Positions 18,462 through 46,639 of a stretch of 64,000 nucleotides of DNA are shown in pieces. Below the pieces are notes generated by a model. The model saw nothing but the letters and a program-made list of their open reading frames with translations, had not been told where the DNA came from and made no database searches. The position numbers and the translations under genes are program-made. This DNA comes from Flaccisagitta enflata (Eukaryota). Position 1 is the stretch's first letter; every line of letters starts with the position of its first letter. The stretch lies in the NCBI GenBank assembly GCA_965153355.1, contig OZ231126.1, positions 36,828,001 to 36,892,000 on the forward strand. Reading direction: 5' to 3'.

Positions 18462-18798
18462 TTATAAATTGTGTTTGTAGTAATAACCCTATCAATAAGT
18501 CATCACCGTTCATAATCTTTATTTTCTGGCCTCGTAGCCAGCTTTTATGTCGCGTACTCCGTCGGTCTGTTGGCCCGTTCGTCCTTCCGTAATGCTCTAC
18601 GCAAAAAGTGTGAATCCCTCTGCTAAAGCAGGGTCGAGTCAATTCATTCAAGTCTAACGCAAACGAACATAAAACTCCGCATAAAACTGGCAAAAACCAA
18701 AGAGTGAGGAAGACTAGCTGGAGGAAAGGTAGAGCGAGGTTTAGAAGGAGGGGAGCGAAGAGGGGAGATAGAAAGTCTGAGGGAGGTTTGGAATTGGA

Positions 18799-19807
<1,009 letters not shown>

Positions 19808-20126
19808 AAGATGATCAAAAGTAATCGATAGTCTCATTTCAGTTTGGTATCCATGTTGACAGCTTAAACATACTTTGCCCATCTACAAAAAGCTCATCCT
19901 GCTCATCTGCTCATTCTTAGACTGACTTATCCTCACCTTTTGCATTTCCGTTCACCCGCATGATTCGCTCCAAGGCCCTATTAAGCATCTCGGCGCTCAA
20001 AAGATGATGACAAAGACCATCGGATTGTCATGTTACTCAGCTGTTTTATGGCCCCAAATCCTTTTATTAAATACAGCTCGGCTCGGCACATGCAAATTGA
20101 ATTCGTGAAGGTTGATTAACTCACGT

Positions 20127-21035
20127 TATAAGTTACGCCCACGAGTTTCAACTGGCACTGTCTATGAGCGTCTATCTGACTGACGACTTGTGGTGAAAGA
20201 AAGTTGGCCGATTGGAAAATAGGAAGGCGATCGTCTCGTTTATTCCATAAAAAATTTCAACAACTGAAGAGAGGGGGAAAAATGAAAGGGAAAGTGGGCG
20301 TTAATTGTGATCAGCAAACGCAAAAGATAACATGAAATCGAGATAGGACACAATAAAGGACAGAAACAGCACATGACAACATGTTCATCTTCTTCAGAGC
20401 CCATGCCACCTGATAATACCTGCCCCTGCCCCGGCCCATCCCATTAAATTCATCCATATCATCCCTATAGCAAGCTGATCGGGCAAGCGATAAAAACCAT
20501 ACTAAAATCCGGCGATAAAAATGCAAAAGGGCAAAAGACAAAAATAACAGACTGAGGACAAAATAAAAAACGATAATAAAAGCAAACACGCGTCTATAAA
20601 ACTTACTTTTAGGCTCACTGTTGGTTTCAACCTACAGTCTGTCGGGTCAAATTAACGTTAATTGTCCTTCGTTCATTAGTTTATTCTGCAAAAAGAGAGA
20701 TTATTGAAATTAGTGAATTCCAAGGGCGCATTCAAACGATCACAAAAATCAATCAATCACTTTAATAAGCAATGCCGCAAATAAATAAAATCAATCAATC
20801 CAAAATTGATGATACGAAGACGAGATACGTATGTTCGCTACGTAATAAAAAAAAAAAAAAACAAATGGCAAAAAAATACAAGGCGCAAACCATATGGTTA
20901 CCCATCTAGCGTTCAATATAAAAATGGCGAGAAACAAAAGACGCGGCATTGAATGATCGAAGAAGAGAAAAAGCCAAAAGCACGCAAAAGAGACAAAAGC
21001 ACACATACCTAAAAAACGGACGGACATTTCTAACA
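20127..21035 (-). repeat. 3' LTR of the BEL/Pao element
   Basis: Begins TGTTAGAAATG on the minus strand at 21035 and ends ...AACTTATA abutting the TSD. Aligns with 32364-33273. Confidence 0.95.
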
Positions 21036-21050
21036 TTCTGCCCCATTTTT
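21036..21050 (-). promoter_or_regulatory. Polypurine tract (PPT)
   Basis: Minus-strand aaaaatggggcagaa lies immediately before the TG of the 3' LTR. Confidence 0.75.
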
Positions 21051-21192
21051 GGAATTTCACGAATTTCAAAAATCCGACATCTAGTTTCCAGTCGGGGAAA
21101 CCCTACTAAAAAACCGATACTACCTTCCTTAAAAAAAAAAATTTACATAGACACAAACCCCCGCCCCTCCCCCCCCGTCCACCGCCTCTTAC

Positions 21193-24182
21193 ATCCCCAC
21201 CCTAACTATCAACAGATCGACGACTGCACGAATGATGATTCCCGTCCGGAAAGGATCCACCACCAGCAATTTGCAACGATCAATGACGATGCGGATGGAG
21301 ACGAGGTGGCGACGAGGAGGTTGAGGCGCCCGTTCCTGTGTTAAAGGGAAGGGGGAAAGGGAACGGGCCTAGGAGCACCCAAGCCTGGGATTTGACTTGG
21401 AGGTGGAAAATATAAGTGGGGGCATACTACTAAAAACATGTCATACGAAAGTATTCGTAATAATGACTAAAAAGACCATGTCTAAAACAAACACAACAAA
21501 TTTACATGTTCCAAGGAACCAAACAAAACAAGACAAAATAAATAAGTTACTAACTATATATAAAAACGAATCTGTAAGGTAAAAACAAATTAGTAAGCAT
21601 CATGGAACGACCACATCACCTGCGCCTTCTCCATTACAGAGACGAGCGGATCATTCCGGAAGCTCCAACACCTCGTCAATCCGTGGGCGAAAGGCGATAA
21701 ATGATGTCGTCAACGGCGACCGCATCGAAAGGCGCAGGTGGTGCAGCCGTCTGAGAATGTATCCTCCCCGAAGGGAAGAAAAGGAAAGAGAAAAATGGGG
21801 GCAGATTGATTAGTAATGTTCTTAATGTACACAGATTCAAATTTACAACAAAAACTCAACCTCAACCCTTCCCAAACCATGAAACTTACGCGGGCTGCCA
21901 CAGGCCCCGCGGACGTCATTCCCATCCCAGGCGCCCGACTTGGCCTGCCTGTCCATCGATGGGATGAGGATGCGAAGGTGGAATACTACCCTCAGCGAAT
22001 GGCGGCGCTCTCCACGCCATGTTGCAAATTGGTAGTTAAGTTGAACAGCAACTGGGCGTGGCACCAATCAGCGTTTAGCTGGCGGTCTGATTTTTCCAAG
22101 GCCTGGTTCGATTTTTCTTATTCCCAGGCTTGGGAGCGCTTATGACGTGGGATCTGCTGACCGACTTTTTCTTGCCAAGAAGTTACCCAGGAGGTGGAGA
22201 TGCTGCACGCACTGCGCCAGTCGAAATTTCTTGACGACAGCGGACGCAGAAGTTTTAAAGTCGCACGGCCATAGTCGGCTTTGCGCTGCTCCACCGCTTT
22301 CCTTCTTCTTTCTTAGCCTTCATCAGACAGGCCTGCTTCCTTTTCAAGCTTAAGTCCCCAGTTCCACGACTCGCTTATTGCCTTTGACCACCTCATTGTC
22401 CGCAGCCATTGCTGCTCGACGAGCATCGTCTCTCTCCTTTTTGATGTTAATTATGATCACAACTCTCTCTTGCCTAAGACTTGACGAGCCGCTTCAACCC
22501 GTTGACGCGGCGGAAGCGACGCTAAGAAGTCTTTTGGAAGCCTTGATGCTAAATTCTTCACCACCCCCAATGGAGCATTTGAGGTCAGTGAAGAGGTTCT
22601 CGTAGCAATGACTCGGCGATGTGGTGTCCATGCGCAGGATCAAAGGCTGGATCCGACGGGGGAGGCGGGTTCTGCACTTGCTGCAGACCTTGGGCAGACT
22701 CGGTTTGCTGACGAGGCGCTACACCAGCTTTAACAGATGCTGAAGCACCGCCAACTAGTTCGCTTCCTACCGCGGCTTTTGATGGCTGCGAGTGAAAGGA
22801 AGACGCTCCCGTCTGCTGACCATAGACTTGAGGTTTAACAGCGGACGCCGAAGCACCGCAAGTAGAACCTCCCTTGGTTGCTGCTTTGTGCTTCTTCCCA
22901 GCTCTCTTGGTCTTCTTCCCCTTTGCTGCCGCTGCCCCAGGCGCCTGATCCAGCTTCTGGGTTGCTGCCAACGTTGCCGTCGACGAACCGCTTGAAGCTT
23001 CTCCTTGGCCTTTGGGCATTACTGCTGCAGGGGGCGCGCCTGGAGGCGCTTGAAGGGGGCCTTTGCTTTTGGAATTTGGCCCTTTTTGTTGACTCGGCAC
23101 ATTGCGCGTTTGTGGAGTCTTTCCCCGACGTGATCTCTTCGACTTTTGTGAGGGAGTGATGTCACGAGGACCCTGTTGCTGCTGATTTGGGGGATGAACC
23201 AATCCAGGGCGCGATTGACGACTTCCTGATGCTGTAGAGTGAATTGCCGCTGATGTAGCTGCGGCTGCGTCGAGCACGAATACCGCTGGTGGAGTTGCGG
23301 AAGCGTCGACAGCAGTTGCACCAGGAGGCTTCGGAGCCGCATTCTTCCTCTTCGTCGCCTGGACCATGCGACGAACCTCCTTATCATGCTCCCTCCTTCT
23401 CTTATTGCTTTGGATTTTGCGCTCCAGAGTCTCCGAGCCAAGCTCTGTTTGATTAGCCGATGAGCGCATGAGAGTTTGTTTGTTGCAGCATACCGAAAGT
23501 TTTTCAAACTCTTTGAAGAGGAGAGATACTCCGACGTCGGGCTGATGATACGATACCACCAACGCGCCTGCATCCGTTGGTGCTTCTCTTCCGGCCGCAG
23601 TGTCCACTTCCGTCAATGTCTTCTCCACTGCCTCCCTCCCCATTCACTAACACCTCCTCTCTGTTTCCATCCTCCTCCTCCACTCTTGCTCCATCATTGA
23701 CCGACCTCTCTCTTCGCCCCCGTATGCTGGACGTGCAGCTGCAGACGCTGATCACGAGACGCTGCGACCAAATCAAGGCAAAATTGGCGAGGCGATGGGG
23801 GCAAATCCGATGATGATGACGCCGCCGCGGAAGTGGTGAATAAGTCCGTCGGCGGCCGATTGATCGAGATCCGCCTCGAACCTCCATCTCTGATGACCAC
23901 CAATGGAGGAAGCGACGCGGGATCAACGGCGTTGGATGGCTGTTGACGATTTACCAACGCATCATCTTGTTGACGCTTTTTATTCGCCATTTTTGCGTCT
24001 ACGACAGAACGAAGGTCGCCATTGAAGGCTGCCAACGCGACAGCCTCCTCCTCCGCCCCGAACGACGTCGTGGATGCAGATCCCTCTCGAGTCGAGCCGT
24101 CGTTGAAGAGTCGATGAAGATCCAAGGATCCGTACGACGTCGACACGTCGGCTTCTGCCTCGAGACGCTGCTGACGGGACAT
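21193..24182 (-). CDS. Accessory gene (ORF2) of the retrotransposon, sense orientation, probably spliced; low-complexity, basic and coiled-coil-like product of unknown function
   Basis: GC-rich coding-like sequence from an ATG at 24182 through ORF pieces 23694-24206 and 22585-23643, continuing with frameshifts and stops to 21890. Candidate introns are 21889-21751 (GTAAGT...TTCTCAG) and 21619-21336 (GTGATG...pyrimidine tract..ACACAG), with a further donor GTAAGA at 21192. Confidence 0.55.
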
Positions 24183-24531
24183 CTTGACTTCGACGAGCGA
24201 CTTCAAGATGCGAACTGACTGTCAGATGGAATGACGTCGTCAGCGGAAGCTTTGAAATGTTCGTATTGAGAGAACTGATAAAGGTAAGAACGGATTTGGC
24301 ACAATAATATGTACATATAGACAGAGCGAATGAATCAGTGTTTTGATGTGTAAGTGGAAATGGACAACATAATTGACAAGAGGAAAGATGAAAGCATGGA
24401 TAATCAGAACCAAATATGAATAATAACAACTCTTTGTAAATATAACAAGTCAGAGTATCAATCACTCATATCTATAGTTACTAATGGACAGGCCCATGCG
24501 CCTTTTTCTCTCTCTCAAAACTTAGCGTTTT

Positions 24532-27500
24532 TTATGAGTCCAATTCCAGCCGCACAAGCTTCATGCGGCCCTCGTCACGATCTTTCCATCTTGGCGCCGG
24601 ATGTGAGCCCTCCGGACATGGGCTGACGAACCCTCGACGCCATGACACGTCCTAAGCTCCACCAGTGACGAGGTAGCGTTTCGTCCATGACGATGACCAT
24701 GTCATCAACCGCAAAGTCTCTCTCGGATCTCGACCATTTGCTTCGCGCATGAAGAAGCGACAAATATTCGACCCTCCACGACTTCCAAAATGCATCCACA
24801 CGCGATTGCGCACGCCTCCATTGAATCTTCGCGGAGTCGGCGTCAGAATTGACGCCTTGTTGCACCAGATCCAGAGGGGCATGGCCGGATGTTGATGGAT
24901 TGAGGATATGATTCGGTGTAAGGGCCTCAGAGTCATTTGGATCATCGCTGAGCGCTGTTAGAGGACGGCGATTGAGAATTCCTTCAACTTCGACGACGGC
25001 AGTGTTGAAGGCGTCGACGTGGAGGATGGCGCCAGTCGAGATGGAAGCAAGATGGCGCTTAAAGAGAGCGACGACTCTCCCACACCCTCCATAGTGCTCC
25101 GATAAAATCCCACCGGCGTCGCCGCTGAATTCGGGAGGAGACGAGCGGTTCCAAGCTTCCATTTCCTTCTTGAGGATGTTGTTGGCGCGACTAGATTCGT
25201 TCCACAATCTGATGTGAAACGGCGGATTCCTGTCGCCTTGCTGCAAAGCGGATGATTGCATTTACCATCGCATCGGCTGACATGTTGAAGAGCAATTCCA
25301 CATGGACGGCGCGTGACACGAAACAGGTGAACACTGCGATCCACACCTTGTGATCAGCACGCCCGTTCATTTTTACCATGAAATGCCCCATGACGTCCAA
25401 TCCAGTCTCTGCAAAGACAGGCGCCGGATTGACGCTATGTGATGGAAGATTGGCCATTTGCTGATTTGCTTCTTTTTAAAGTTCTTCTGGCATCTAGCAC
25501 GTGTTGACGACGCTCTTGACGGCCTGAAGACCTTTGTAATCTACACAAATTGGCGTAATTGGCACAATGTATGCTTTGCACCCGCGTGAAAATCATTATG
25601 ATGATAATGGCGAATTAATGATTTCACATTCTCGTCTTTTGGCGGCAGGATGAAGGGAAATTTAGCGTCGTGAGAGATGTCGGCATTCTCCAATCGACTG
25701 CCGACGCGAAGGATGCCGTCGTCGTCGACGAAAGGGTTCAGCTTCCGCATCTCCTTGTTCTTTATGATAAAGTCACGACTGCTTTCTGGCTTGAAGACTT
25801 TTCCCAATTCCAATTGTTCAAGACGTCAACACTGTTGCCGCTGCATTGACTTGACGAGCTGTTTGCGCGCTCTCCTCCACGACGCCTTGCGTCACTTCCG
25901 GTTTGGGAAGGAGATCTTTTGTTGCTCGTGTTTCGCCCTTGGATACGTCTCCACCTTTGACTGCGATGAGAACCATGCCGATAATCCGCACTTTGCATCC
26001 ATTTTCCCGAGAAGCTGTTGTGAAGAAGCATCGCGCCAGCCACTTGTTTCTTTTCACTCTCAGCCGCATACAGAGCGGCGACTTGTGCAGAAATAGGGCA
26101 CGTCGCGATGTTCGTCTTTGGACATTGATCTTCGGGAAGACGCAAAAATGCAGGACCGTGATGGAATTGACACCATTTTTCGGCTTCATGGGCCTGGATG
26201 CCTCTGCTACAGTGGTCCGCCGGGTTGTTTGACGAGTCAACCCAGCGCCACTGTTGAGGATCAGACCCACTGTGGATCTTGGAGAGACGATTGGCGAAGA
26301 ATACAGGCCTCGGTTTTGCCGGATTGTAAATCATCTTCAGTGCAGATTCAGAATCAGACCAAAATCTGACGACTAGATTGTCCAAGTTGATGGTCCTTCC
26401 GACTTGCGTTTGAGCTGCACTGCTTTTTCTGCGGATACAACTCGACACGTGGAACGCTGTTGTGATGAGAAGACGTTTTGATTGAGATGACGTGAGATTT
26501 GGAGGCAAGGAATGAAATGTGAACATCTCCATCTCGATTGACTTGACGTCGATATGCAACTGCTCCATATCCGCCTTTTGGAGCTGCATCGCAAAATAAC
26601 TCGATTGTGACTTCCGCAATGTCGCTATTGTCGACGCCGCCATTCCACCAGCGTTCAATTCGATATTGTTGTAGAAGAGGCCAAGATGAAGTATAGCGGA
26701 AGAAAGATTCCTCGACGCTCTCTTCCAAGGGCGAATCCCATCCCACTTCCTGTGGACGACAGAGTTGAAGATGTCGTCTACCGATGTATGCGCTTGGGCT
26801 CCAAAAACCCAATGGATCGTAAAGTTTCGCTTGCATAGAGACCAATTGACGAGGTGTTTTTGCTCTAAGAGTTTTGAATTCTTCGTCGCAGATGAAAATA
26901 AAGACGTCTTCCGCCGGAAGCCATGAGACGCCCAACACCTTCGTCGGCGCATCATCTTGCTTATCTGAAATGGGAATTGGCACATTTGGATCTCCATCCA
27001 TCAATTGCCGCGCATTGCTTTTCCACTTCACAAGATCCATCCCGCCTTCAGCCATCGCCGCCACTGAATCCACCTTTAGTTGCAGTGCTTCGTCGACCGA
27101 ATCCCCACCCCCACTTCCGTCGTCGACGTAAAAACCATAGCGAATAAGATCGTAGACGTTGTAGGGATATTTGGGCCGGATTACTTCAGCATGCTTTCTG
27201 ACGGTGAAAGACGTGACGAATGAGCTGGATTGGCTACCGAAGACATGTGATAAGAACAGATTCAAAATGGCTTCTCGTAGAGTACGGTCTTTGAACCAAA
27301 AGAATCTGAACAGATCAGCGTCGTCAGGATGGACGCGGATCTGGTGGAAGAACGCCTTTATGTCACACATAAAGGCGATCTTCCACTGACGAAAACGCAT
27401 GAGGATGTCCATTAAGCTATTCATCAAATTTGGACCTCCGACGAGCAAATCATTGAGTGAGATCCCGTCGGTCGCCGCACGCGCATCGTGACATACGCGC

Positions 27501-30500
27501 GTTTTTCCGCGCAGTTCAACAATATGAAGCGGTAAGTACCAGCGCGGTTTCTCAATGCCGTCGTCGTCGTCGACGTTATCAATCTCAATCGCCACTCCCG
27601 TCTCGTAAAACTTCTCGATTTCACGGAAGACTCTTTCTTTGAAGGCTGGATCACGCTTGAAGCGAAAACGTTGATTACCGAGTCGCTTCATCGCAGTTGG
27701 TCGTGATTTCACTCTTCTCAGAATCTCCATGATTTTCTCGTGATGAAATTTCCACGTGACGGGAGCAAAGTACTTTTTCACAATTGGGCAAAAATATGTC
27801 TTTTCCTCTAACGTTTTGCACGCTCTGACATTTTCAAGGGAATCACCCATCTCCTCTTGCGAGACGATTGACGATGCAAAGTCATGGTAGAAGATGCGGT
27901 CAATGTTGCTGTTGAGGACGCGATTGTCGAGGATGCGATCGATATTATCGTTGAGGACGCGGTCATCCGTCGCGATAGCGTTGATCGACGCAATATCTCG
28001 TCCTCTCTTGCCCGTTTTTCCACATACAGTCCAACCGAACAGACATCTGAAGCAAGTCAAAGATCCTGAAGGCCCTCGACGGATTTCTTGAGCGACGGCG
28101 GCATCCGCATGCGCCGCTCCGATGATCATCATCACACCGCCTTCAGCTTCTGGAAATTTTATGCCTTCGATGTGAGGTTGGTCAGATAGGTCGCGGAGAA
28201 AAGGAGGAATGTCGCGTTCACTCGTTAACAAATCACCCACCAATGCGTCGTTGATGTCGACGACATATTCTTCGTCGACCGATTGCATAGTGAATGATGC
28301 GATGAAACGATCCTCAACAACATGACTTCCCACAGTAATCACCGTCATTTGCACTGTTTTTGTTGGAATCAGAAGACTGCGAATGACATTGGTACTGATC
28401 ACGTCGCGATCAGCGCCTGAGTCGATCATAGCGTAAATCGTCCTCTGCGCACCCGAAGAATTGTTTATGATAGTCACTGGAACAATCGGACGGACAACGT
28501 CGAATGAAGAGACGGACCGCGACGTTGCCGTCGCCGCCAGTCATGCCGTGACGTTAGAAGAGATCACCTCCGTAGGATTGGCTGCCTCCGCCGTCGACGG
28601 AGCTGTTGGTGCTGCTGCAGCCGCATCCTCTGACTTTTTGAAGGGAGCCAGCGGTACTTTATTTCCCTGCTTATTTTCCTTTCTTCTCTTCCTTTTCTTC
28701 TTTTCTTATAGGTGCGCCCGTGAGAATCGTTGCGTGCCGCTTCTTGCAGGTTTGGCAAGTCGGTCTGTTCGCGCATCCTTGGCGTTGTGTCCTGCGCGAG
28801 ACAGTGGAAGCAAAGACGACGAGACATGATCTTTTTGACTCTCGCGTCAACTTCCAACTCTAACAGCTGATGACATTCTTCTGTCTGATGCATTCCACTG
28901 CAGACGTTGCAGCGGTCCGTCGACTGCGTCTTTTGCTTGCCATTGGTCAAAGCATCTTCATATGATGATGGCGCTTCTTTCTCTGTAGTTGCGACTGCTG
29001 CCACTGATGCTGTTTTGCAGCTTGCGCCTTTGTTGCGCTGAATCACCGCCCATGTCTCGATCATATTGACCAAGTTGTCGAATGAAAATAATTGTCCATT
29101 TTGGGCTGCTTCATGTTGCTTTTCCCAGAATTTATCTGCAAGATGAGGGACCCTCTTGTTGAGGATCTCCTGCAGCAGCTCGTCACGATAGCATTGTTGC
29201 ACTTCTCCACAGGTCCTCGCAATCTTCTTTGCCTTTTGCAACCTTGCAGACAAATTGAAATGCCTTGCATGGTCGGCCGACTGGATCTTCGCCTCCGCGA
29301 CGATTTCGTTGAACAGCGCCGCAATGTTGCAGCGCCTCGCCATGAAGACGACGTCCATTTTTGCAAAGGCGTCGTCAATTTCTCCTCTTGCTGTCGCTTC
29401 AGTTGCATCAATCGTCGCAGTTTCTATGATCTCTTTTGCCGGACCAGCAAACCACTTAGGCAATTCCAATAAGATGTCCATTTGCGTCAAGCCCTCATGC
29501 TTCTCAGCATCTTTGAACTTCCTCTTCCACATCATAAAGTCGGTGGATGAAAGCTCCTGCAGAGGCTTCTCAGGTCTTGCTCTCTCCAACGCTTTGAGGC
29601 CGACCTCCCTTGCTCGCATGAGATCATTGTACGTCGCTCTTTCCAAAAACCTGTCCAGAGCTGGATTGTTGGGCATCTGAACATGGACTTCCGGTTGACG
29701 GGCTACTTGATGATGCTCCACTTGATGATACGCTGGGGGTTGTTGGATGAAGGCATATTGACCCCCGACTTTTACCGGAGATCTCTTTTTGGTGGTTTTT
29801 ACACTCCACCCAACTTCCTCTTGCTGATTCACTTGTTGTTGACGATCATCTTGATGGAATCTGGGAGCATCAAAATCTTGGCGGACGTACTGTCGCTGTT
29901 GTTGTTCTTCTTTTGTTCCTCTTCTGCTCGCTGCGGCAAGGTCAAAGTCTCTCTGCTGAATCTGCATCTTCAAACTATCCACTTCTTGGCAAAACGTTGA
30001 TTCTGCTGGATGACTTCATTGAGGCGTCGTTAGAGGCGCTTGCGCTACTTTCGGCGCCTTTGGCTGCAATCCACTCGTTGTCTTCTTGGGAGCGACTTTT
30101 CTTCTTTCTTTATCTTGCAGCTGCTGGGCCAACTTCGCGTCAGCGGCCTCTTGCTTCTGCCTCCTGCGCATTGCCTCCGTCGCATCACCTCCGCTTCCGG
30201 CTGTGTTGAAGACCTTTTCCTCTTGATGGGGAAGACCAGTCTCCCTTCTAGCAGAACCAATCTGCTTCTCGAAGATCACTTCCGGTGCGGTAGGGAGAAT
30301 CGTTGCTGCTGGGGTTTGATGATGCTGATCCTGATGCTGTTGCTGTTGTTGAAGCCGTTGCTGCTGCCACTGTTGATGTCGAAGCTGCTGTTGCTGGTCA
30401 GGACGCTGTTGCTGTTCATTCTGCTGCTGCAGTTGACGCTGGCGCTGTCCTTGCTGCTGCTGCTCCAACTGTTGCTGCTGCTGCATCGGCTGCTTGACGG

Positions 30501-32300
30501 ACGTTTCCACTGACTGCACATGACGCTGCTGTATGTTCGGATTGAACAATCCCGGATTGAAATTTCTGAAGATAGATCGACGGTCTTTTGGCGGATGCTG
30601 CGGCTGCTGCTGGTCCAGCTCAGACAGTTGTCTAAGCTTCACATCCCGCTGCTCTAAAGCTCCACCAATGCCGCCGTCGTTCAGGCTATTCCAGTGCTTT
30701 CGTTGCATTTCTGCCGCATTGTTGAATACTCCTGCTCTTCTATCTTCATCTCGTTGCTGCTGCTGGCGAAAGTTACACATTCTGTCATATAACTCTTTGT
30801 CTTCTTGTGATGAGCTTCGCTGTTGGAATCCCAATGGCACCGCGATCGGCGCCTTTGGAGCTGTTGCTGCACCACCACCTTCACCTTCAGCCATCATGCG
30901 CAGACGTTGATCTGCAAGGCGTTGCTGTCTCTCTTCTTCTGTCTCCTCACTGACGTTCATGCTTTCGACAAGATGGTTGTTTGAAGCTGGAGGATCCACT
31001 ACCACCGCTGGGATTGCGGCGGAAGGTTGCTGTTGCTGCTGCTGTTGCTGTTGCGTATTTTCTCCTGCATCGTTTTGCCGCTGTTGTTGTTGTTCGTGCG
31101 GCTGCATTGCCGTTTGTCGCAGCTCTTGTTGTTGTTGCTGTTGTTGCTGCTGTTGATCTTGTTGTTGTTGTTGTTGAGCGCCGGCTGCAGGATCTTGTTG
31201 ACAAAATTGTTGGAGTTGCTGCAACTGCTGCTGCTGCAACAGCTCTTGCCGCTGCCGTTGAGCCGCCGCTTTGCTGCTGCTCCTGTGGTCGGTGGAGTTG
31301 ACGCTGTTGGAGTTGCTGCTGCTGCATCTGCAATTGATGCTGCTGCTGTTGCTCCTGTTGCTGTCGCTGCTCCTCCTCCCGTTGTTGCTGCTGCATATCG
31401 TCAATCAGCCGACGGCCTTGTCGCATTTCCTCCTCCAACTGCCTGCCCCATCTGTCTCTCTCAGCACTCTTGCTGACTAAGCTGCCGCTCGCCCTCTCCT
31501 GCGGCGTCAATCCGTTGATGATCCCGCGGCCTCTTGCATGAGCGCCGGGCGTCGTCGAGATCCGCAAGCATGCCGTCAGCTTGCTCCATCGGAGACGCAC
31601 GCGCAGGTTCAATTTCCGAGACCAAATCTGATACCCATTGATTGACGGCATCTCCTCTTTGGATCGGCGGCAGATTTAAAATTGGCCGCCAGTTGGAGAT
31701 TGCGCACCATGTCGCGGGACCGGAAGTGGTAGATACTCGGATCTGTCGGGGTTTGGCGAAGACGTTCGCATCCTTGGAGTCGGAGCGCCGGTAACATTGT
31801 CACGGGCGGCGTGGGTGTCTGCTGGGAGACTGTTCCATGAGAATTCATTGACGGGTCTTTTGCGATTCCCAATGTCATTATGCACTGCGTTCACAATGTC
31901 GGCGCAGAAGGAAAACCCTCTGATAGTTTTCACGATCAAAGAAACGCATAGAGTCCCATTCGCGCCGGATTCGACGCAAAGAAGACGCCGCGAATCGAAG
32001 AGGGTCGCCGGGCATCGAGTCGAGCGCCATTTGCCTTGCATACGATATAAAGTCGAGACCATATCCCGAAGGCCGTGCCGAGCGCCATCCGATTCACAGG
32101 CGGCGTCGTCGAAGTCGTTCTCCTTCGGTGCAAGTAGAAACGGCGCCGAAAAGGCGCCGGCATCCTTCCATTTCCGCAGTGATGTCGTTCCTCATTGCGC
32201 GCAAACGATTCGACCTCGGACACTGATTCAAACCGAAGTGAGATACACGAGATGACGTTGAAGCAGTCGAGACGGTGTCGTCGCTACGCGCGGCTGCCAT
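24532..32300 (-). CDS. BEL/Pao gag-pol polyprotein (frameshifted in this assembly)
   Basis: ATG at 32300; Q-rich Gag; Cys/His knuckles CNVCSGMHQTEEC and CFHCL; protease AMIDSGAD; RT DIKAFFHQI, HVFG, YVDDG; RNase H FCDAA, LASKSHV, PRVEL, WSDS; integrase GLDVMG and EVEGILNRRPLT; C-terminal W..EYL..L and KLVRLELDS stop at 24532. Confidence 0.93.
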
Positions 32301-32363
32301 TGTCCAATTTCGCTTTCGGAGGTCGAAGATGAAAAGAATCGAGTCGTTTTTAAATTGTTGAAA

Positions 32364-33273
32364 TATAAGTTACGCCCACGAGTTTCAACTGGCACTGTCT
32401 ATGAGCGTCTATCTGACTGACGACTTGTGGTGAAAGAAAGTTGGCCGATTGGAAAATAGGAAGGCGATCGTCTCGTTTATTCCATAAAAATTTCAACAAC
32501 TGAAGAGAGGGGGAAAAATGAAAGGAAAAGTGGGCGTTAATTGTGATCAGCAAACGCAAAAGATAACATGAAATCGAGATAGGACACAATAAAGGACAGA
32601 AACAGCACATGACAACATGTTCATCTTCTCAGAGCCCATGCCACCTGATAATACCTGCCCCTGCCCCGGCCCATCCTATTAATTCATCCATATCATCCCT
32701 ATAGCAAGCTGATCGGGCAAGCGATAAAACCATACTAAAATCCGGCGATAAAAATGCAAAAGGGCAAAAGACAAAATAACAGACCGGAGGACAAAATAAA
32801 AACAACGATAATAAAAGCAAACACGCGTCTATAAAACTTACTTTTAGGCCCACTTTCGTTGGTTTCAACCCACAGTCTGTCGAAGTCAAATTAACGTTAA
32901 TTGTCCGTTCATTAGTTTATCTGCAATAAAAAGATGAGAGATTATTGAAATTAGTGAATTCCAAGGGCGCATTCAAACGATCACAAAAAATCAATCAATC
33001 ACTTTAAGAAGCAATGCCGCAAATAAATAAAATCAATCAATCCAAAAATTGGATGATACGAAAGACGAGATACGTATGTTCGCCTACGTAATAAAAACAA
33101 ATGGCACAAAATACAAGGCGCAACCATATGGTTACCCATCTAGCGTTCAATATAAAAAATGGCGAGAAACAAAAGACGCGGCATTGAATGATCGAAGAAG
33201 AGAAAAAGCCAAAAGCACGCAAAAGAGACAAAAGCACACATACCTAAAGACGGACGGACATACATTTCTAACA
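32364..33273 (-). repeat. 5' LTR of the BEL/Pao element (may extend to 32356 if the true end is ...TTTCAACA)
   Basis: Direct repeat of 20127-21035. Contains an Inr-like TCAGTT (A at 32501) and a minus-strand AATAAA at 32481-32476. Confidence 0.93.
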
Positions 33274-33431
33274 CACGTGGATGGTCTTTTGACCTGGATC
33301 ACCGACGATCGACCTATCAGTGACAGCTCAGCGGCAGATCAGCGGCAGATCACCGGCAGTTTATAGGAAGATCAATGGCAGATCAAGGAAAGATCATGGG
33401 CAGATCAAGGGAAGATCATCGCCAGATTCTA

Positions 33432-45536: not shown

Positions 45537-46506
45537 TCACGTTTCCACATCATCTTCCTTGACTCCCATCTCCATTTCCTCCAATCTTGATTCCGCTTCC
45601 GCTTCCGCTTCCGCTTCTGCCTTCACTTCCGCTTCCTCTTTCACCTCTTCATTCTCTTCTCTCTCACCTCCTTCCATTCTTGTCTCCCCACACAACCCAC
45701 CATTGATCAATCCATTTTCCACATCCTCTGCCTTGACTTCCATCTCCATTTCCTCCAATCTCGATTCCGCTTCCGCTTCCGCTCCCACTTTCGCTCCCGC
45801 TTCCGCTTCCGCTTCCATTTTTGCTTTCGCTTCCGCTTCCGCTTCCGCTTCCGCTTCCGCTTTCTCCCTCTCCTCCTCCGTTTGCAAGAGGTCTTCAAGA
45901 TGCCCGTTGATAGCATCTCGCCAACTGACACGACAGCAGCAGCACACGTTGACAACCTTTTTAAGGACAAAGACTACTTCAGAAAGAATGGGAGAAAAAA
46001 TCCTCGCCACGTTAAGCCCTGAGAAAATTATGAGCCCAAATATGAAATGGAGGCACTGACAAGACAAGGCAATCTCACGAAAGTAAAAGGGATGTCTAGA
46101 TACTGCAAAATAATCTGATGATGATGCAATAGAAGCAAAAGAAACAGCATGCAGCAAAAGATGAAGGATGGTGCGGATAGCGCGCCAGATTTTGCCGTGG
46201 CAACATTGACATGAGCATGGTGCGCAGACCACCAAAACTGTGAAAAAAGAGGATAGGATATTGGGTAAACCAATCGAAAATGAAGAGAAATATAGATATG
46301 GTATCATCCACTGCATAGTAGCTCCTGTGATTGCCGAAATTAACAAGCAGGCGATGGGCGACAGTGAAGCCAAAGGTGGATGCTTTGGGTGAATCCAGTG
46401 TTTACGCCGACTTTGACCGACGAATTCCAGAACGGTTCGGACAATTGTGATAGTGGAAGTTGCGATGGAAATGAATTTAATCGGCGACTGAGATACGATT
46501 CCAGAA
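45537..46506 (-). CDS. XK-related protein, exon 3 (TM helices plus acidic repeat tail)
   Basis: Acceptor ttttcag at 46507, phase 2 matching exon 2. Hydrophobic segments (FISIATSTITIVRTV...LHFIFGLIIFSGL) precede EA-rich repeats. First in-frame stop is TGA at 45539-45537. Confidence 0.8.
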
Positions 46507-46639
46507 CTGAAAATTTCAAAAAATGAAAGATGCAGAGATTTATAAATCATATGCAATTGGGCTGGGGCAGTGATGCAGAAATTGTGCACTTACAAGAAAG
46601 CCGCGGGTGGAATAAACAACCAACTGACCAAAACGCTTC

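Follow-up and report, generated by a model that had tools for sequence, protein, structure and literature searches.

The question raised by this locus is what a BEL/Pao long terminal repeat (LTR) retrotransposon carries between its pol gene and its 3' LTR. The locus lies in 64,000 nucleotides (nt) of Flaccisagitta enflata DNA (assembly GCA_965153355.1, contig OZ231126.1, positions 36,828,001 to 36,892,000); this whole stretch is called the window here, and positions are counted from its first letter. The element lies on the minus strand, is 13,147 nt long and occurs once within the window. A preliminary description placed a sense-strand, multi-intron accessory gene unrelated to envelope (env) genes in the region of about 3.5 kb between the end of pol and the 3' LTR. 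The region does have this length; it begins with an AT-rich spacer (GC 0.39-0.40) and continues with coding sequence rich in Ala, Ser, Arg, Lys, Pro and Gln. A conserved, sense-strand, non-env extra gene is also present. The proposed introns did not hold. It can be said with high confidence that this is where a 13.1-kb BEL/Pao element carries its third gene (ORF3), a single continuous sense open reading frame (ORF) of about 705 codons that starts at ATG 24182 and stops at TAA 22077-22075. It is preceded by an AT-rich spacer of about 0.35-0.4 kb and followed by about 1 kb of untranslated sequence and the LTR.

ORF3 occupies 22075-24182 on the minus strand (ATG 24182-24180, TAA 22077-22075), as delimited by intact relatives and by frame-aware alignment to one of them, P0007. 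Relatives were first found using a 352-amino acid (aa) open stretch (22585-23643) as query, followed by a search for longer forms. The intact relatives P0006-P0009 are 703-710 aa long, have E values of 3e-213 to 7e-194 and stand for clusters of 81, 87, 11 and 4 members; among the 34 members listed, which come from three of these clusters, 28 are at least 703 aa long. Other copies carry the region: there are at least 29 distinct intact, full-length versions in public assemblies (29 of the 40 family proteins compared), in addition to diverged fragments. The 29 full-length variants share 85.5-99.9% pairwise identity, with a median of 93%.

The window aligns with P0007 from the first residue to the last, that is from ATG 24182 to the final codon at 22078, and the TAA of the window comes next. 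The coding region is therefore 2.1 kb long (24182 to 22078) rather than the 2.3 kb plus further exons originally suggested. Identity is 624 of 710 residues and 13 frame changes are required, in agreement with the stops and frameshifts reported earlier for this copy. The stop is kept at the window TAA, or within a few residues of it, in the 15 full-length relatives whose sequences were compared and in the C-terminal fragments P0001 and P0004.

Some predicted relatives are longer (747-803 aa), but differ only by N-terminal extensions derived from the spacer (24183-24574, minus strand). The extensions of P0014, P0025, P0026, P0030 and P0040 have differing start points and correspond to differing reading frames of the window; therefore, the spacer is not conserved as coding sequence and the conserved Met is the likely start. 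ORF3 is linked to BEL/Pao pol in a second copy by P0046, a protein from an internally deleted copy in which integrase sequence is fused straight to the C-terminal module of ORF3. One contig of DNA run X1 joins 24189 to 24579 and omits 389 nt of AT-rich spacer; the shorter side of the joint is only 24 letters long, at 85% likeness, and the contig possibly represents a spacer-less subfamily or a mis-join.

Conservation extends well beyond these close variants. Ten diverged fragments (P0041, P0042, P0045, P0049-P0054 and P0056) are 36-56% identical to P0007 and are colinear with it through the N-terminal region, acidic patch, core, linker, C-terminal module and tail. The diverged N-termini P0053, P0054 and P0055 have the same start Met. 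An R-x-R-x-W motif (L in P0050) is found 0-7 residues before the end in all nine sequences that reach the C-terminus, although the end of a short fragment may be the end of its contig. Across this divergence the 2.1-kb frame of ORF3 stays open, with insertions and deletions (indels) in multiples of three. Because frames remain open in diverged copies, ORF3 appears to be held under selection.

Outside its own family, ORF3 has no identifiable relatives in the collections searched. A HMMER scan of 1,835,955,588 representative proteins gives 17 matches at E<=0.001, all of which belong to the ORF3 family; the ten diverged fragments are among them. No Pfam family reaches threshold for ORF3; the rows for DUF4472 (E 0.017-0.028) and Lin-8 (E 0.02) were rejected as they are far under the cut-offs. 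Profile searches of PDB with the alignment A1 and with alignments of the C-terminal and N-terminal/core parts give a best E of 0.087, while hhalign comparison of ORF3 with the two halves of the element's own gag gives probabilities of 0.1 or less. A JGI metagenome scan with P0007 and an IMG/VR scan with P0006 return no relative. ORF3 is probably a lineage-restricted orphan protein that is kept open by selection on the element.

The predicted protein is strongly basic (pI 9.84 for P0007) and rich in Ala, Ser, Arg, Lys, Pro and Gln. Its N-terminal region is conserved and leads into an acidic patch and then a Trp/Phe/Cys-Cys core, also conserved, with KRRR after it. These are followed by a linker of about 230 residues, rich in Ala, Ser, Pro, Gln and Lys and with strong basic clusters; in the C-terminal part come a conserved region of helical heptads and, last, a basic tail. 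Residues 1-150, 205-285 and 520-660 of P0007 make up the three conserved modules. In 30-residue windows of P0007, the acidic patch (residues 151-210) has net charges of -7 and -5; the basic clusters reach +7 at 361-390, +10 at 421-450 and +6 in the tail. Basic clusters had been noted before in the window sequence, and both of those named, KSKRSRRGK and KGKKTKRAGKKHK, are present. Residues 587-657 of P0007 form a heptad-compatible stretch, as does the matching place in four diverged relatives, according to a crude home-made heptad count; this fits a coiled coil in the C-terminal module.

A hydropathy scan finds no signal peptide or membrane-length hydrophobic segment in ORF3, and its N-terminus is hydrophilic. 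Over 19 residues, the Kyte-Doolittle mean of P0007 peaks at 1.32, too low for a membrane span, and the maxima over seven family members are 0.64-1.32. P0007 contains only six Cys. The absence of envelope traits, claimed at the outset for the window copy, extends to intact proteins. Low hydropathy, the lack of Pfam and PDB matches and the lack of likeness to gag together indicate that ORF3 is, as judged from its sequence, a non-envelope orphan protein.

The preliminary description continued the gene through two introns, 21889>21751 and 21619>21336, to a further donor at 21192. Such a multi-exon accessory gene is highly improbable. Its splice motifs do exist (GTAAGT at 21889, TTCTCAG at 21751, GTGATG at 21619, ACACAG at 21336 and GTAAGA at 21192), GC-rich and AT-rich blocks do alternate, and GTRAG motifs are rare enough on the sense strand of the element (three in 11.3 kb) for it to be of note that two of the three are the proposed donors. 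However, every motif lies 3' of the conserved stop; in the intact relatives the gene is one ORF of 703-710 aa, and its stop is 186 nt upstream of the first donor. The peptides of the proposed exons occur in none of the 56 family proteins. The sense frames of the 3' region contain 11-18 stops each, and the longest open stretch is 91 aa. This 91-aa frame, which holds the proposed first exon, has no match among the 50-160-aa proteins of a 5.8-billion-protein collection and no Pfam family. GTRAG occurs in the region at the background density of the window: two in the 1,042 nt between stop and LTR, against 1.94 per kb on the same strand of the whole window.

Contigs from RNA libraries point the same way. 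Two metatranscriptomic contigs, X15 record 10 (21351-22088) and X16 record 16 (21351-22071), are colinear over 21889>21751 and over most of 21619>21336. None of the 15 listed contig joints is in an RNA run or at the proposed positions; a further 488 joints are unlisted and contigs lose rare forms, so that a minor spliced RNA may exist. What was read as introns reflects chance occurrences of splice motifs within the 3' untranslated region. This region (21051-22074, minus strand) has stops in all sense frames, and its longest frame has neither a protein nor a Pfam match.

RNA structure was considered as a cause of the GC/AT blocks and rejected: the two halves of the region have folding z scores of -4.0 and -3.1, which is within the range of the element. 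In 500-nt windows of the whole element, z varies from +1.0 to -4.8 and several coding windows are at -3 or below; because other windows, coding ones included, fold as strongly, folding of the 3' region is not distinctive. A 22-nt inverted repeat with 82% complementarity (21607-21628 and 21729-21750) flanks the proposed second exon and may be a chance match.

The scarcity of GTRAG on the sense strand is a property of the element at large. Between 21036 and 32363 on the minus strand there are three GTRAG motifs, compared to 18.3 +/- 4.1 in Markov-1 simulations, none of which (0 of 500) is as low. The antisense strand has 14 compared to 14.9 expected. In the open coding segments (7,836 nt), one GTRAG is found where codon shuffling gives 9.65 +/- 2.9, and none of 1000 shuffles falls that low. 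Depletion is absent from eight of the nine control motifs, including six whose composition is similar; the exception is the shorter prefix GT[AG]A, which is modestly low (33 compared to 40.2). The remaining minus-strand sites in a motif scan of 21036-32363 are 30950 (GTGAG), 21889 and 21192. The LTR adds a perfect GTAAGT at 32841 and 20606, and a GTGAG at 20618 is present in the 3' LTR only.

Parts of the 3.6-kb stretch are found in 20 listed public runs from 12 studies; most carry a marine or aquatic metagenome label, and RNA libraries make up six of them. For 'organism A', the DNA run yielded 37,430 contigs that align to the element. Contigs from RNA libraries cover all 30 bins of the element and come from three libraries in two studies, which suggests that the element is transcribed. 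RNA-contig cover is lower at 20943-21350 than beside it; the X15 and X16 contigs end at 21351 and there are low-complexity G/T runs in this interval, in which absent contig cover was not counted as evidence. RNA contig depth over ORF3 is no higher than over pol, but such depth is no basis for ranking parts of the element.

The frame changes in the window copy can be compared with those in its LTRs. Global alignment of the LTR pair gives nine substitutions and 24 gap events; the length differences are mostly of 1 nt in A/T runs, plus one 10-nt difference in an A run. The density of LTR length changes predicts about as many frame changes in ORF3 as are seen. This excess of indels over substitutions (24 vs 9) suggests long-read assembly error rather than decay. 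Three of the 13 frame changes in ORF3 are near a run of at least four identical letters, compared to a background of 0.29; there is no homopolymer enrichment.

Function can be proposed from these features with much less assurance than anatomy. ORF3 may be an oligomerising, nuclear or nucleic-acid-binding cofactor of the ribonucleoprotein (RNP) or pre-integration complex of the element; this is the preferred, though tentative, proposal. RRM, Transposase_22 and other RNA-binding domains have no Pfam match in ORF3. Under the proposal, the protein would serve the element's own cycle, as an oligomer that forms a nuclear or nucleic-acid-binding part of the RNP or pre-integration complex. Translation would be from a dedicated subgenomic mRNA, either spliced or internally initiated, by analogy with ORF3s of other LTR elements. 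These are typically expressed from separate spliced messages, according to the available part of one report (PMC5408684), and a separate subgenomic message is by this analogy the most likely route of expression here. A more specific form is unlikely: here the element would be a 'complex' belpaovirus and ORF3 an RNA-binding regulator similar to Rev, Rex or ORF1p, translated from a subgenomic mRNA whose splicing draws on one of the few remaining sense-strand 5' splice-site motifs. The family also turns up in contigs from many runs of marine plankton, among both DNA and RNA libraries.

Other origins and roles for ORF3 have to be set against this cofactor proposal. The main functional rival to a particle or RNP role is that ORF3 antagonises host silencing or restriction, such as small-RNA or chromatin defence. 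Many viral counter-defence factors are fast-evolving, disordered, lineage-restricted and basic, as ORF3 appears to be, and its linker and tail are the most variable regions among the 29 full-length variants (27% and 38% of columns). However, the modules of ORF3 are kept over deep divergence, which is unlike a pure arms-race protein, and this role is regarded as distinctly unlikely. It is very unlikely that ORF3 came from the host by transduction, or is a nested foreign element, and is carried along as a passenger without use to the retrotransposon. LTR elements are known to capture genes, as the accessible text of one study states (PMC7264820), and a function for ORF3 is proposed from sequence only. 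Against this, none of the 1.84 billion representative proteins is a homologue outside the ORF3 family, and even in lineages as diverged as 36-56% identity the frame stays open, its start and end unchanged. Codon usage is also like that of the rest of the element: GC content at third codon positions is 0.52 in ORF3, 0.53 in gag and 0.55 in pol, and the correlation (r) of relative synonymous codon usage is 0.47 for ORF3 and pol compared to 0.51 for gag and pol. No repeats or duplications flank the segment, and DNA-run contig depths for ORF3 and pol agree in order of magnitude, although this is a poor measure.

It is extremely improbable that ORF3 is a diverged env or fusogen gene of the kind carried by roo, Tas, Cer7 and the mosquito BEL elements. 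ORF3 does have the position and sense orientation of an env gene and a coiled-coil-like stretch, and the extra genes of BEL/Pao elements reported to date are env-like in the parts of the literature available (PMC8742986; PMC13524379). However, seven family members are without a signal peptide or membrane-length segment by the hydropathy maxima given above, Cys residues are few, and the high pI and long low-complexity basic regions are not those of an envelope protein. The search for a known env by profile was likewise negative, with no Pfam glycoprotein family and no PDB match to ORF3.

Some observations weigh against the account of ORF3 as a maintained, expressed cofactor gene. The window copy of ORF3 is itself broken, and the full-length set was selected by length and gives no unbiased fraction of intact copies. 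Variable columns among the 29 shallow variants are spread fairly evenly over the regions (18-38%), with no sharp contrast between domains and linker. RNA-library contigs are no proof of transcription, as DNA can occur in such libraries; no subgenomic joint specific to ORF3 is among the 15 joints listed, none of which is in an RNA run. The whole basis for nuclear localisation, nucleic-acid binding and oligomerisation is composition and the home-made heptad count. Taken together, the anatomy, maintenance, architecture and function set out here nevertheless form a probable explanation of the region.

The assignment to BEL/Pao is secure, as the LTRs, the CACGT duplication, Peptidase_A17 and DUF5641 all agree. 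The 3' LTR is 909 nt long (20127-21035, minus strand) and was delimited by local alignment to 32364-33273, the 910-nt 5' LTR on the same strand; 878 of 887 ungapped aligned columns are identical in this alignment. The target-site duplication CACGT (5 nt) was read from the flanking sequence at 20122-20126, with its partner at 33274-33278. The purine-rich tract AAAAATGGGGCAGAA (21036-21050, minus strand) adjoins the 3' LTR and is a candidate polypurine tract from its position. Directly inside the 5' LTR (32345-32363, minus strand), the sequence TTTCAACAATTT... is without the TGG start usual for tRNA primer-binding sites. A tRNA scan finds no tRNA genes in the window and an Rfam scan finds no family there.

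Both gag and pol are spread over several frames in the window copy. The pol gene extends over 24575-28540 on the minus strand, as defined by the ORF table and Pfam domains. Peptidase_A17 (E 2.3e-23, 83.4 bits, cut-off 22.3) lies within 26354-28540 and DUF5641 (E 8e-16, 58.5 bits, cut-off 23.1) within 24575-25261. RVT_1 within 26354-28540 scores 19.6 bits and is under its cut-off of 29.6. Integrase signals are weak and in broken frames (25191-25825): Integrase_H2C2 (E 0.056) and rve (E 0.043) are both under the Pfam cut-offs. In the frame of the window pol ends at 24575; most related contigs have a 1-nt length difference at 24639, which would shift this end by a few codons. The gag region (28564-31404, minus strand, from the ORF table) comprises a 483-codon gag and an upstream 462-codon Gln-rich stretch, which are in the same frame with one stop between them (30016-30018). 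From this arrangement, the gag of intact copies may reach about 945 aa, its N-terminal extension being poly-Q-like. No Pfam family matches the gag region at E<=0.01.

The ICTV profile of Belpaoviridae gives a genome of 4.2-10 kb with gag and pol, and env as an option (PMC8742986). The element exceeds this range at 13,147 nt; the range describes the family and is no strict criterion. Four parts account for the excess length: ORF3, the 3' region of 1 kb, the Gln-rich extension of gag and a leader of about 0.96 kb. Long (GA)n/(CT)n microsatellite arrays are found directly outside the 3' LTR (18600-19900). Elsewhere in the window, a 350-aa open frame on the minus strand (45537-46589) has a sub-threshold match to Piezo_TM1-24 (E 3.2e-4, 19.7 bits, cut-off 28.8), and is possibly an exon of a host Piezo-like gene.

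Rev, Rex, Tat, foamy-virus Tas and Bet, and LINE-1 ORF1p are small-to-medium basic proteins with Arg/Lys clusters and oligomerisation helices, and act on the RNA of their own element. ORF3 shows no sequence or profile similarity to any of them in the Pfam and PDB searches, and no multiply spliced RNA is seen among the RNA-library contigs; the likeness is used as a working model only. Sense-strand introns retained inside a retrotransposon gene would have been the more surprising claim; there is no evidence for them here, and that claim is corrected. The many natural intact variants and the modular architecture of ORF3 make it a tractable case.

Among BEL/Pao elements, roo (with an F-like gene), Tas, Cer7 and the mosquito BEL elements with a Chuviridae-like glycoprotein share with the window element a third sense ORF, located downstream of pol and ahead of the 3' LTR. 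In contrast to ORF3, which lacks a signal peptide, an anchor and glycoprotein homology, the third genes of these elements are env-like glycoproteins in the parts of the sources available (PMC8742986; PMC13524379). The extra genes in the accessible portions of PMC3118150 and PMC13524379 are likewise env-like only (roo F-like, gB-like and Chuviridae-like). A non-env third gene in a BEL/Pao element is described nowhere in the main texts of the open-access papers searched.

Accessory genes have so far been found in complex retroviruses, in the bdelloid elements Vesta and Juno and as plant aORFs; BEL/Pao extra genes are env-like in the literature examined. Vesta and Juno are metazoan LTR elements from bdelloid rotifers that also carry a non-env ORF3, with a presumed auxiliary role in replication according to the available text (PMC5408684). 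Unlike the ORF3 described here, which matches no known family, the ORF3s of Vesta and Juno are recognisable enzymes (GDSL esterase and DEDDy exonuclease) and the elements are not BEL/Pao (PMC5408684, same portion). GENE23 of the maize element Grande is closer in character: it is an orphan accessory gene in a long region between pol and the 3' LTR, is present in most copies, has no outside homologue and encodes a nuclear protein, as far as the accessible part of the study describes it (PMC7264820). GENE23 is antisense, has its own promoter and belongs to a plant Ty3/gypsy element, whereas ORF3 is in the sense orientation in an animal BEL/Pao element (PMC7264820, same part). A conserved, clearly non-env orphan gene of about 705 residues would take the concept of accessory genes to a third superfamily of animal LTR elements.

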